A stretch of DNA of 64,000 bases, from the NCBI RefSeq assembly GCF_011045215.1, contig NZ_CP049201.1. The stretch is one strand, 5' to 3'. The stretch is from Escherichia coli (GTDB taxonomy: Bacteria; Pseudomonadota; Gammaproteobacteria; Enterobacterales; Enterobacteriaceae). The position numbers and the translations under genes were made by a program. The notes under the pieces are model-generated. The model ran no database searches and was not told where the DNA came from. It saw only the letters and a list, made by a program, of their open reading frames with translations. This document shows, piece after piece, positions 7,929 through 43,438 of this stretch. Each line of letters opens with the position of its first letter. Positions within the stretch are counted from its first letter, which is position 1.

Positions 7929-8960
7929 TTAGTCGCTGGTTGCATGATGACTTGCCTCCAGCGACGGAGTTGACACTGAATGGCGACGTACCAGCGTCGG
8001 ACTAAAGACATTAGTGATTTCCGGGAGAGGGCGATTATCCGCCAGCGCCAAAGCCAGTTCGGCAGCCTGGGTCGCCATCGTCACGATTGGATAACGCACG
8101 GTGGTCAGGCGCGGTCGCACATAGCGTGACACCAGCACATCATCAAAGCCAATTAACGAAATTTCGCCCGGTACATCAATACCATTATCATTGAGAACGC
8201 CCATCGCACCTGCCGCCATTGAATCGTTATAACAGGCTACCGCAGTGAAATTTCTTCCTCGTCCCAAAAGCTCGGTCATTGCCTGTTCGCCGCCGCTTTC
8301 GTCTGGTTCGCCAAATGTCACCAGCCGATCATTGGCCGGAATACCACTTTCAGCAAGGGCATCGTAATACCCTTGCAGACGATCTTCGGCGTCAGAAATA
8401 GAGTGGTTAGAGCACAGATAACCAATGCGGGTATGACCTTGCTGAATTAAATGACGCGTTGCCAGCCAGGCACCGTAACGATCGTCCAGAGCAATACAAC
8501 GGTTTTCAAAGCCAGGCAGGATACGGTTGATCAGCACCATACCGGGCATTTGTTTCATTAATGAGGCTAAATCGGCATCCGGGATCATTTTGGCATGGAC
8601 GACCAACGCAGCACAGCGATGGCGGATCAGTTGCTCAATAGCCTGACGCTCTTTTTGTTCGTTGTGGTAACCGTTGCCAATCAATAAGAAATTACCGGTG
8701 TGATAAGCCACCTGTTCGACCGCTTTCACCATTGCACCGAAAAACGGATCGGAAACATCACCAACGACCAGACCGACCGTTTCAGTGGTCTGCTGCGCCA
8801 GCGCACGGGCGTTGGCGTTCGGGTGATAGCTAAGAGACTCCATTGCACTATGCACAGCCAGCCGGGAAGCTTCGCTGGCTTTGGGTGAATTATTAATGAC
8901 GCGGGAAACGGTGGCGACTGAAACGCCTGCCAGTCGGGCTACATCCTTTATGGTCGCCAT
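7929..8960 (-). CDS. galR: galactose repressor (LacI/GalR family)
   Basis: 343-aa ORF, N-terminal HTH MATIKDVARLAGVSVATVSRV. Confidence 0.95.
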   Translation of the reverse strand: MATIKDVARLAGVSVATVSRVINNSPKASEASRLAVHSAMESLSYHPNANARALAQQTTETVGLVVGDVSDPFFGAMVKAVEQVAYHTGNFLLIGNGYHNEQKERQAIEQLIRHRCAALVVHAKMIPDADLASLMKQMPGMVLINRILPGFENRCIALDDRYGAWLATRHLIQQGHTRIGYLCSNHSISDAEDRLQGYYDALAESGIPANDRLVTFGEPDESGGEQAMTELLGRGRNFTAVACYNDSMAAGAMGVLNDNGIDVPGEISLIGFDDVLVSRYVRPRLTTVRYPIVTMATQAAELALALADNRPLPEITNVFSPTLVRRHSVSTPSLEASHHATSD

Positions 8961-9173
8961 GAAAATACCTTAGTGGGTAAACGCTTACATTCTTTCAGTG
9001 TTACGGAAAACGCCCGTTGGTTCAAGGGGTGGCGTGTTTTCATCGTGGGAATGTGAGCCAAACGCAAATAAGTAAGACAAAAAAAGAGATTGCAAACCTT
9101 TGGTTACACTTTGCGAAACGCTGTTGCGATTGACCGCTGGTGGCGTTTGGCTTCAGGTTGCTAAAGTGGTGAT

Positions 9174-9256
9174 CCCAGAGGTATTGATAGGTGAAGTCAA
9201 CTTCGGGTTGAGCACATGAATTACACCAGCCTGCGCAGATGCGCAGGTTTTTTTTT
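9174..9256 (+). ncRNA. omrB: OmrB small RNA (RygB)
   Basis: Begins CCCAGAGGTATTGATAGGTGAAG, ends in hairpin CCTGCGCAGATGCGCAGG plus T9; matches my recollection of OmrB; located between galR and aas. Confidence 0.8.
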
Positions 9257-9370
9257 GCCGGTCATCAATCTGTAACAGTAACCGACAATTTACACACCTC
9301 GTTGCATTTCCCTTCATTCCTTTGCGTTTTCTCGCTGGCGAAGAGTCGTCGTGCAGACCACAATCAAGAT

Positions 9371-9458
9371 CCCAGAGGTATTGATTGGTGAGATTATTCG
9401 GTACGCTCTTCGTACCCTGTCTCTTGCACCAACCTGCGCGGATGCGCAGGTTTTTTTT
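9371..9458 (+). ncRNA. omrA: OmrA small RNA (RygA)
   Basis: Begins CCCAGAGGTATTGATTGGTGAGATTATTCGG, ends in hairpin CCTGCGCGGATGCGCAGG plus T8; paralogue of omrB about 200 bp downstream. Confidence 0.8.
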
Positions 9459-9524
9459 CGCACCTAATTTACTGTCGCTCGCGTTCTTTATCTCGTGTAA
9501 TCTCCCTCCATTCGCTTTTACTGA

Positions 9525-12891
<3,367 letters not shown>

Positions 12892-37959: not shown

Positions 37960-38036
<77 letters not shown>

Positions 38037-39376: not shown

Positions 39377-39560
39377 CAGGGTGAGGGATAACCTCACATC
39401 CTGATTATTGACTAAGTGCGCGTTGTTCATGCCGGATGCGGCGTGAACGCCTTATCCAGCCTACAAATCATGCAAATCCAAAATATTGCAGGAGTTATGT
39501 AGGCCTGATAAGCGTAGCGCATCAGGCATTTATGCGTTTAGGGTGAGGGATAACCTCGCC
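39377..39560. repeat. BIME/RIP-like REP cluster between mltA and tcdA
   Basis: REP GCCGGATGCGGCGTGAACGCCTTATCCAGCCTAC and inverted REP GTAGGCCTGATAAGCGTAGCGCATCAGGC, flanked by two copies of GGGTGAGGGATAACCTC. Confidence 0.7.
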
Positions 39561-42524: not shown

Positions 42525-43232
42525 AAATATCCTCCGGCATAGCCGGAGGTTTTTCAAATGCGCCTATAAGGCTCTCTTACCAGCCGCGCCCTAACAGGCG
42601 CACACGATCTGACATTTGCATCCAACTTCGTTACTTACGGCCCGTAAACGGGCTGCCCGGATAGGGAATCGATAACTGCTCTCCCATTTCATCCTCTTCA
42701 AGCTGGTGCTTTATGTAATCCTGTATCTTCGCCGTGTTCTTACCCACCGTATCGACGTAGTACCCTCTGCACCAGAACTCCCTGTTCCTGTATTTGAATT
42801 TCAAATCCCCAAACTGCTCATAAAGCATCAGACTGCTTTTCCCTTTCAGATATCCCATAAAGCCGGATACGCTCATTTTGGGCGGGATCTCCACAAGCAT
42901 ATGGATATGATCTGCACAGCATTCAGCTTCAAGAATCCGTACGCTTTTCCACTCACACAGCTTTCTCAAAATACTGCCTATTGCTCTACGCTTCTCTCTG
43001 TAGAACACTTGTCTTCGGTATTTTGGCGCAAAAACTATGTGATATTTACAGTTCCATCGGGTGTGCGCTAAGCTCTTTTCGTTCCCCATTGGGACCCCCT
43101 TTTGATTTCTTGTTTGACACTTGCAGTTGCCAGACCGCAAGGTGTTTTAACAAATCAAAAGGGGTTTTAATAACTGGCTCAAAGCTGAAAGCTTTCCGGA
43201 ACCCCCAGCCTAGCTGGGGGTTTTCTGTGCAC
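42525..43232 (-). mobile_element. IS200 insertion sequence (IS200/IS605 family); ends approximate to within about 10 bp
   Basis: Encodes a 152-aa IS200-type Y1/HUH transposase; similar GC-rich subterminal hairpins at both ends (CCCCCAGC-CTA-GCTGGGGG at 43202-43220; CCTCCGGC-ATA-GCCGGAGG at 42531-42549); stem-loop sequestering the tnpA RBS; total about 708 bp. Confidence 0.85.
42631..43089 (-). CDS. tnpA: IS200 transposase TnpA (Y1 HUH transposase)
   Basis: MGNEKSLAHTRWNCKYHIVFAPKYRR...HIHMLVEIPP (HuH motif), 152 aa from the internal Met of the track ORF. Confidence 0.9.
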   Translation of the reverse strand: MGNEKSLAHTRWNCKYHIVFAPKYRRQVFYREKRRAIGSILRKLCEWKSVRILEAECCADHIHMLVEIPPKMSVSGFMGYLKGKSSLMLYEQFGDLKFKYRNREFWCRGYYVDTVGKNTAKIQDYIKHQLEEDEMGEQLSIPYPGSPFTGRK

Positions 43233-43438
43233 AAAAAAAAGCACCGCAATTAGGCGGTGCTACATTAATCACTATGGACAGACAGGGTAAATGTACAGGA
43301 AGTGAAAAAAGGTAGCTTTGCTACCATGGTCTGAATCGCAGACCAATTGCAAACACAACAACACAACATCACAACCGTAAGCCAAAAGTTCACCAGAACA
43401 CGCATTCCGATAAAACTTTTCGTTCCGGCTCAGGAAGT
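43233..43438 (-). ncRNA. gcvB: GcvB small RNA
   Basis: Minus strand reads ACTTCCTGAGCCGGAACGAAAAG...GTTGTGATGTTGTGTTGTTGTGTTTGCAATTGG...GCACCGCCTAATTGCGGTGCT plus T8; about 206 nt; divergent from gcvA. Confidence 0.9.

Follow-up and report, generated by a model that had tools for sequence, protein, structure and literature searches.

Two paralogous small RNA genes, omrB and omrA, stand in tandem between galR and aas in an Escherichia coli genome

The intergenic region between galR and aas in the analysed window (the whole stretch of 64,000 nucleotides of E. coli DNA) contains two independent genes, omrB and omrA, encoding paralogous, Hfq-dependent and trans-acting small RNAs. We give this reading a probability of about 98%. 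The locus is the already known and well-studied OmrB/OmrA pair, and it shows every defining feature of the OmrA-B family open to in silico testing. Its value is that of correct annotation only. It is textbook knowledge that OmrA and OmrB regulate the composition of the outer membrane, iron uptake, motility, biofilm formation and OmpR, which is their own activator. A plain open reading frame (ORF) track over the spacer shows spurious ORFs in place of two functional RNA genes.

The identity of the two units is clear from both a family model and a direct comparison with K-12. In a scan of the whole window against Rfam 15 at gathering thresholds, RF00079 (OmrA-B, gathering score 40) matches twice on the plus strand, with 86.1 bits at 9174-9255 and 96.6 bits at 9371-9458. 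Each match covers the whole model, from position 1 to position 87 of 87, without truncation. This search had been proposed in the preliminary description of the region, and the pair passes it. The first unit is identical to omrB of K-12 MG1655 (b4445, on the galR side) at 82/82 nt and the second to omrA (b4444, on the aas side) at 88/88 nt. As the galR-proximal unit is omrB and the aas-proximal one omrA, the order OmrB then OmrA in the earlier title is right. The two units also lie where they had been described, but their lengths are 82 and 88 nt rather than about 85 nt each. Spacer matches to SgrS (15.2 bits, gathering score 37) and TeloSII_ncR49 (24.5 bits, gathering score 55) were rejected as sub-threshold.

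The tandem pair, co-oriented with aas, has the same arrangement in K-12, and lengths, order, strand relative to galR and aas, promoters and terminators agree as well. Over the 585 bp of the galR-aas spacer the sole difference is one extra T at the end of the omrB terminator, which is followed by nine T in the window and by eight in K-12 MG1655. Since the T-run reaches 9256, the 3' end of omrB is possibly 9255 or 9256. An effect of the polymorphism on termination or Hfq binding is conceivable but improbable. A run of nine T at this place (9248-9256) is also found in E. albertii and in several Citrobacter. With an 801-bp query over the spacer, the locus is found in 5423 of 5426 complete E. coli genomes, in 3913 of them at an identity of at least 99%, and every match lies between galR and aas.

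In the RefSeq record NZ_CP033605.1, annotated by PGAP and 100% identical to the window, the galR-aas spacer is without any annotated feature. The feature table of this record lacks omrA, omrB, gcvB and csrB, while omrA and omrB are annotated in K-12.

Table 1. Features of the galR-aas region, in window coordinates. Promoter positions in brackets are relative to transcription start sites at 9174 (omrB) and 9371 (omrA).
Feature	Position	Strand	Description and basis
galR	7929..8960	-	Flanking gene, divergent from omrB
PomrB upstream box TTTGGTTACACTTTGC	9099..9114 (about -75 to -60)	+	Footprint, 16 genomes; published OmpR/RstA site region
GTTACA half-site, PomrB	9103	+	Sequence match
PomrB second box GCTGTTGCGATTG	9120..9132 (about -54 to -42)	+	Phylogenetic footprint
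PomrB -10 hexamer TAAAGT	9162..9167	+	-12T, putative sigma-70 type; sequence, with -12T literature in PMC12692685
omrB (RygB)	9174..9255	+	Hfq-dependent sRNA, 82 nt; RF00079 and identity to K-12 b4445
OmrB 5' seed CCCAGAGGUAUUGAU	9174..9188	+	Single-stranded; nt 1-9 pair with target mRNAs
OmrB central hairpin UCAACU-UCG-GGUUGA	9197..9211	+	Minimum free energy (MFE) fold; paralog-specific region
omrB intrinsic terminator	9228..9256	+	9-pair stem, GAUG-type loop, 9-T run 9248-9256
PomrA block TGTAACA	9271-9277 (-100..-94)	+	Footprint, 17 genomes
GTTACA half-site, PomrA	9271	-	Sequence match
PomrA block ACACACCTCGTTGCATTT	9292-9309	+	Footprint, 17 genomes
PomrA block TCATTCCTTTGCGTTTTC	9314-9331	+	Footprint, 17 genomes
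PomrA -10 hexamer CACAAT	9359..9364	+	-12C and -13C, putative sigma-S determinant; sequence, with literature in PMC12692685
omrA (RygA)	9371..9458	+	Hfq-dependent sRNA, 88 nt; RF00079 and identity to K-12 b4444
OmrA 5' seed	9371..9385	+	Same sequence as the OmrB seed
OmrA central hairpin GGUACG-CUCUU-CGUACC	9400..9416	+	Fold and Rfam consensus structure; paralog-specific region
omrA intrinsic terminator	9431..9458	+	9-pair stem and 8-T run
aas	9546..11705	+	Flanking gene, co-directional with omrA; 87 nt downstream of the omrA terminator

The two RNAs share their ends and differ in between. The 15-mer CCCAGAGGTATTGAT, with which both begin, occurs exactly twice in the 64-kb window when either strand is considered, at 9174 and 9371, and the chance expectation for a given 15-mer in 64 kb is about 6e-5 per strand. 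A repeat finder returns a shared 5' block (9171-9194 and 9368-9391, 23 of 24 positions identical) and a shared 3' block (9221-9258 and 9424-9461, 89% identical), and the middles of the two units cannot be aligned with each other. The near-identical 5' ends, common terminator hairpin and differing middles that had been read from the letters are all confirmed. The seed is exact in both units and unpaired in the Rfam consensus structure. Both terminator hairpins, AGCCTGCGCAGATGCGCAGGTT at 9228-9249 and AACCTGCGCGGATGCGCAGGTT at 9431-9452, are G+C-rich with nine pairs, six of them G-C, and a 4-nt loop. Each transcript consists of four modules: (i) a 15-nt single-stranded seed, (ii) a GGUG...CACC closing helix, (iii) an enclosed paralog-specific hairpin and (iv) a Rho-independent terminator, whose hairpin and U-tail would be the expected Hfq-binding 3' module, i.e., the handle for Hfq.

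The distribution of this architecture was examined by an exact search for the 15-mer in one genome per species (GTDB r220, 298 Gb), where a match was taken as a unit if a stable hairpin and a T-run followed within 115 nt. Of 142 matches, 70 have the hairpin and the T-run, and every one of these is in Enterobacterales; among others the genera are Escherichia, Citrobacter, Enterobacter, Kluyvera, Kosakonia, Pluralibacter, Mangrovibacter, Serratia, Dickeya, Pectobacterium, Edwardsiella, Pantoea, Erwinia, Tatumella and Rahnella. The other 72 seed matches, in unrelated phyla, are without a terminator and were filtered out as chance 15-mer matches in 298 Gb. The seed is unchanged in genomes where Aas is only 65-70% identical to E. 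coli Aas and where the centre of the RNA has wholly diverged. However, as the seed itself was the search key, lineages with an altered seed fall outside the sample, and it cannot tell how often the seed has changed.

All 63 non-redundant units follow a common plan, in which the 15-nt seed is followed by one variable base, GGUG, a variable centre, CACC and the terminator. Three positions of the terminator stem have undergone compensatory double changes (G-C to A-U, U-A to C-G and C-G to U-A), giving stems such as CCUACGC/GCGUAGG and CCCACGC/GCGUGGG in other Enterobacterales. The central segments are unrelated in sequence, with 62 distinct sequences among the 63 units, and yet the hairpin is kept (mean z of -1.9 against shuffled sequences, 87% below -1). 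These values come from folding each sequence against its shuffles, a procedure used in place of RNAalifold on MAFFT alignments, which recovered the GGUG/CACC helix and the terminator only, because the centre is too divergent to be aligned.

In loci of sufficient length, the units are preceded by galR on the opposite strand and followed by aas on their own strand, and the spacing of the tandem pair is 188-275 bp in most genera. This fixed syntenic site across genera bears on the reading of the units as a chance or selfish intergenic repeat, similar to REP or ERIC elements and without an RNA product. Such a reading could explain why short, hairpin-bearing units recur in an intergenic position. 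However, there are two copies only in the 64-kb window, they match the covariance model of a specific sRNA family, and the 72 seed matches outside Enterobacterales, being without terminator, are chance. The probability of a mere repeat is therefore vanishingly small, and the units are best read as genes for RNAs.

Many genomes carry one exact-seed unit only. Single or chimeric Omr sRNAs, e.g., in Yersinia, Serratia and Dickeya (PMC13425233, PMC10342277), have the same seed, GGUG/CACC helix, terminator and galR/aas neighbourhood. A single unit in Enterobacter sp. BIGb0383 (locus L027, 3079-3167) has an A at position 16, as in OmrB, together with a central hairpin of the OmrA type (GGTACG...CGTACC); in this genome aas is located about 2.8 kb further downstream of the unit. 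It is in keeping with the single-copy chimeras that PMC13425233 describes. In two Pantoea loci (L030, 2747-4879, and L059, 647-2770) the units are about 2.03 kb apart, compared with the usual distance of about 200 bp. In L030 a gene for a 579-aa FtsI-like class B penicillin-binding protein is located between the units. It scores 687 bits against NCBIfam NF011685, and as this is under the cut-off of 737 the protein is probably an FtsI paralog.

For each of the two genes a separate promoter is proposed, with the response regulator OmpR as activator. PomrB would be of the sigma-70 type and responsive to multicopy RstA, while PomrA would in addition depend on sigma-S through its -12C. The -12T of PomrB and the -12C of PomrA are the published basis of sigma-70 versus sigma-S dependence (literature summarised in PMC12692685). 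Upstream of PomrB, the footprint block at 9099-9114 reads TTTnnTTACACTTTGC and is invariant across 16 Enterobacteriaceae. It contains both T-75 (9099) and A-68 (9106); the double change T-75C/A-68G lowers pOmpR activation of PomrB from 81-fold to 3.3-fold and abolishes activation by RstA (PMC13425233). Two conserved PomrB boxes are reported in the same study, and the footprints obtained here agree with its conserved boxes. The conserved upstream blocks of PomrA and PomrB, from footprints of 16-17 Enterobacteriaceae, are not alike.

In vitro, OmpR-P activates both promoters as fragments from -114 to +50, and PomrA cut at -60 is no longer activated, i.e., upstream sequence is needed (PMC5175337). 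ChIP of OmpR detects both the omrA and the omrB locus, and OmpR has no strong consensus (PMC3945435), so a motif match cannot decide, and a strict OmpR-box motif test was abandoned. The half-site GTTACA is found once in each 115-bp upstream region, where 0.07 are expected (P about 0.0025). The check for OmpR boxes upstream of each start that had been suggested earlier is thus supported by conserved blocks and published mutagenesis and not by motif matching, given the weak consensus. The regulation of both sRNAs by OmpR, also proposed earlier, agrees with the direct activation in vitro (PMC5175337). For the window, the predicted OmpR dependence follows from nucleotide identity with the K-12 promoters used in these experiments; the putative dependence on sigma-S and RstA is taken from the literature, and the corresponding sequence features are present here.

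A generic scan for sigma-70 consensus promoters between 8900 and 9700 found none. This is expected for weak, activator-dependent promoters, and the promoter assignment therefore depends on the identity with K-12. The two promoter regions (9059-9173 and 9256-9370) share 71 identical columns out of 129 (z about 2.9 against shuffles), in particular TTGCG..CGCTGG.G. This weak residual similarity suggests that the ancestral duplication included the promoter and is compatible with an old event. A 10-nt inverted repeat, 9056-9065/9143-9152, is not kept in E. albertii and was treated as chance.

Repression by the Omr RNAs is Hfq- and RNase E-dependent and proceeds via pairing of the extreme 5' end, which has been proven by compensatory mutations for the ompT, cirA and ompR mRNAs (PMC2588501). 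The claim in the preliminary description that the conserved 5' seed represses outer-membrane protein mRNAs matches this work. Duplexes were computed between nt 1-21 of the window RNAs and the K-12 translation-initiation regions (TIRs) of ompT, cirA and ompR; 48 start regions of the window, each set at the first ATG of a mechanical ORF, served as controls. Nucleotides 1-9 of the seed pair without interruption with ompT at +12..+20 and with ompR at -19..-11 (nine pairs each), the latter site overlapping the Shine-Dalgarno sequence, and both sites agree with the published ones (PMC2588501). For ompT, one of the 48 controls is equally strong for OmrA and OmrB alike; for ompR there are none of 48 for OmrB and four for OmrA. 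The cirA duplex energy is not set apart from the controls, as 10-12 of 48 are equally strong. The strongest control (ORF 1542-2270) starts at an ATG internal to kduI and is hence no true TIR. Seed complementarity was demonstrated here for two targets, ompT and ompR, the in vivo consequences being those of the literature. From identity to the K-12 RNAs (PMC2588501) we infer that the window RNAs bind Hfq and act in an Hfq- and RNase E-dependent manner.

In the proposed mechanism, the seed would pair at or near the ribosome-binding sites of ompT, cirA, fecA, fepA, ompR-envZ, csgD, flhDC and others, translation would be blocked and RNase E-dependent decay would follow. As ompR itself is a target, OmrA and OmrB would close a negative feedback loop on their own activator. 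RybB and MicA are likewise Hfq-dependent envelope-stress sRNAs with the seed at the extreme 5' end and many outer-membrane targets, and PrrF1/PrrF2 of Pseudomonas are another tandem pair of paralogous sRNAs, duplicated genes with separate promoters. However, RybB and MicA are under sigma-E and PrrF under Fur, and all are unrelated to Omr in sequence and outside RF00079.

Four mechanical ORFs of 49-78 codons overlap the RNAs. The ORF at 9385-9621, described earlier as almost certainly not coding, could in principle encode a true small protein, and omrA would then be an RNA of dual function. It is on the plus strand, has 78 codons and starts with a TTG within the seed, and the AGAGG of the seed, 6 nt upstream of this TTG (window 9374-9387), resembles a Shine-Dalgarno sequence (the 20 nt upstream read CAAGATCCCAGAGGTATTGA). 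However, the frame crosses the omrA terminator (9431-9458) and enters aas in another frame, so that no stop codon would fall within the 88-nt transcript. The length of this register varies from 0 to 94 codons in 19 other genomes: positions 15-17 are TAG in Pluralibacter and Mangrovibacter and TCG in one Enterobacter, frame-shifting indels occur within the RNA (...FVPCLLHQPARMRRFFF in E. coli, ...FVPVSCTDLRGCAGFF in Citrobacter), and in E. albertii the ORF is cut to 47 codons. No CDS is annotated at this place in the K-12 or O157 RefSeq record. From the lack of conservation together with this absence from both annotations, the ORF is judged to be not coding, as had been claimed, and the chance that omrA has a dual function is about as slim as one in a hundred trials would suggest.

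The units could also be regarded as a cis-acting leader or attenuator of the downstream aas-lplT operon and not as trans-acting RNAs. They are co-oriented with aas, only 87 nt separate the end of the omrA terminator from the aas start codon, the scan for consensus sigma-70 promoters gave no match in the omrA-aas spacer, and there are sub-threshold matches to the Rfam Leu_leader family (27.8 and 23.2 bits). However, these matches are well under the gathering score of 50, their alignment rests mainly on the terminator hairpin, and a leader peptide is absent. In Pantoea a gene intervenes between one unit and aas, and in L027 aas is 2.8 kb away. The same RNAs have moreover been shown experimentally to be discrete Hfq-bound transcripts that act in trans on unlinked genes (PMC2588501). 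We consider a purely cis-acting role very unlikely, and two genes for trans-acting sRNAs remain the preferred reading. Besides the action in trans, read-through of the omrB and omrA terminators might put a part of aas-lplT transcription under OmpR and sigma-S, but this, too, is improbable, if somewhat less so. The aas-lplT operon serves lysophospholipid re-acylation and transport, and read-through, if true, would link the sensing of envelope stress in cis with the repair of membrane lipids.

Elsewhere in the window, Rfam matches above the gathering score are found for CsrB (61619-61978, plus strand, 384 bits), GcvB (43233-43438, minus strand, 199 bits), STnc490 (43099-43222, minus strand, directly downstream of gcvB, 146 bits) and ES036/CssrF (39464-39506, plus strand, 46.5 bits). 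A single tRNA-Met (CAT) gene is located at 37960-38036 on the minus strand, while O157:H7 TR01, otherwise colinear, has three in tandem at the equivalent position; either the copy number varies between the strains or the tandem array has collapsed in assembly. Finally, an imperfect palindrome, GGTAAACGCTTACA (core GTAAnCGnTTAC), is found at 8975-8989, upstream of galR and 16-29 bp from its start codon. It is similar to operators of the LacI/GalR family and could be the putative autoregulatory site of galR.
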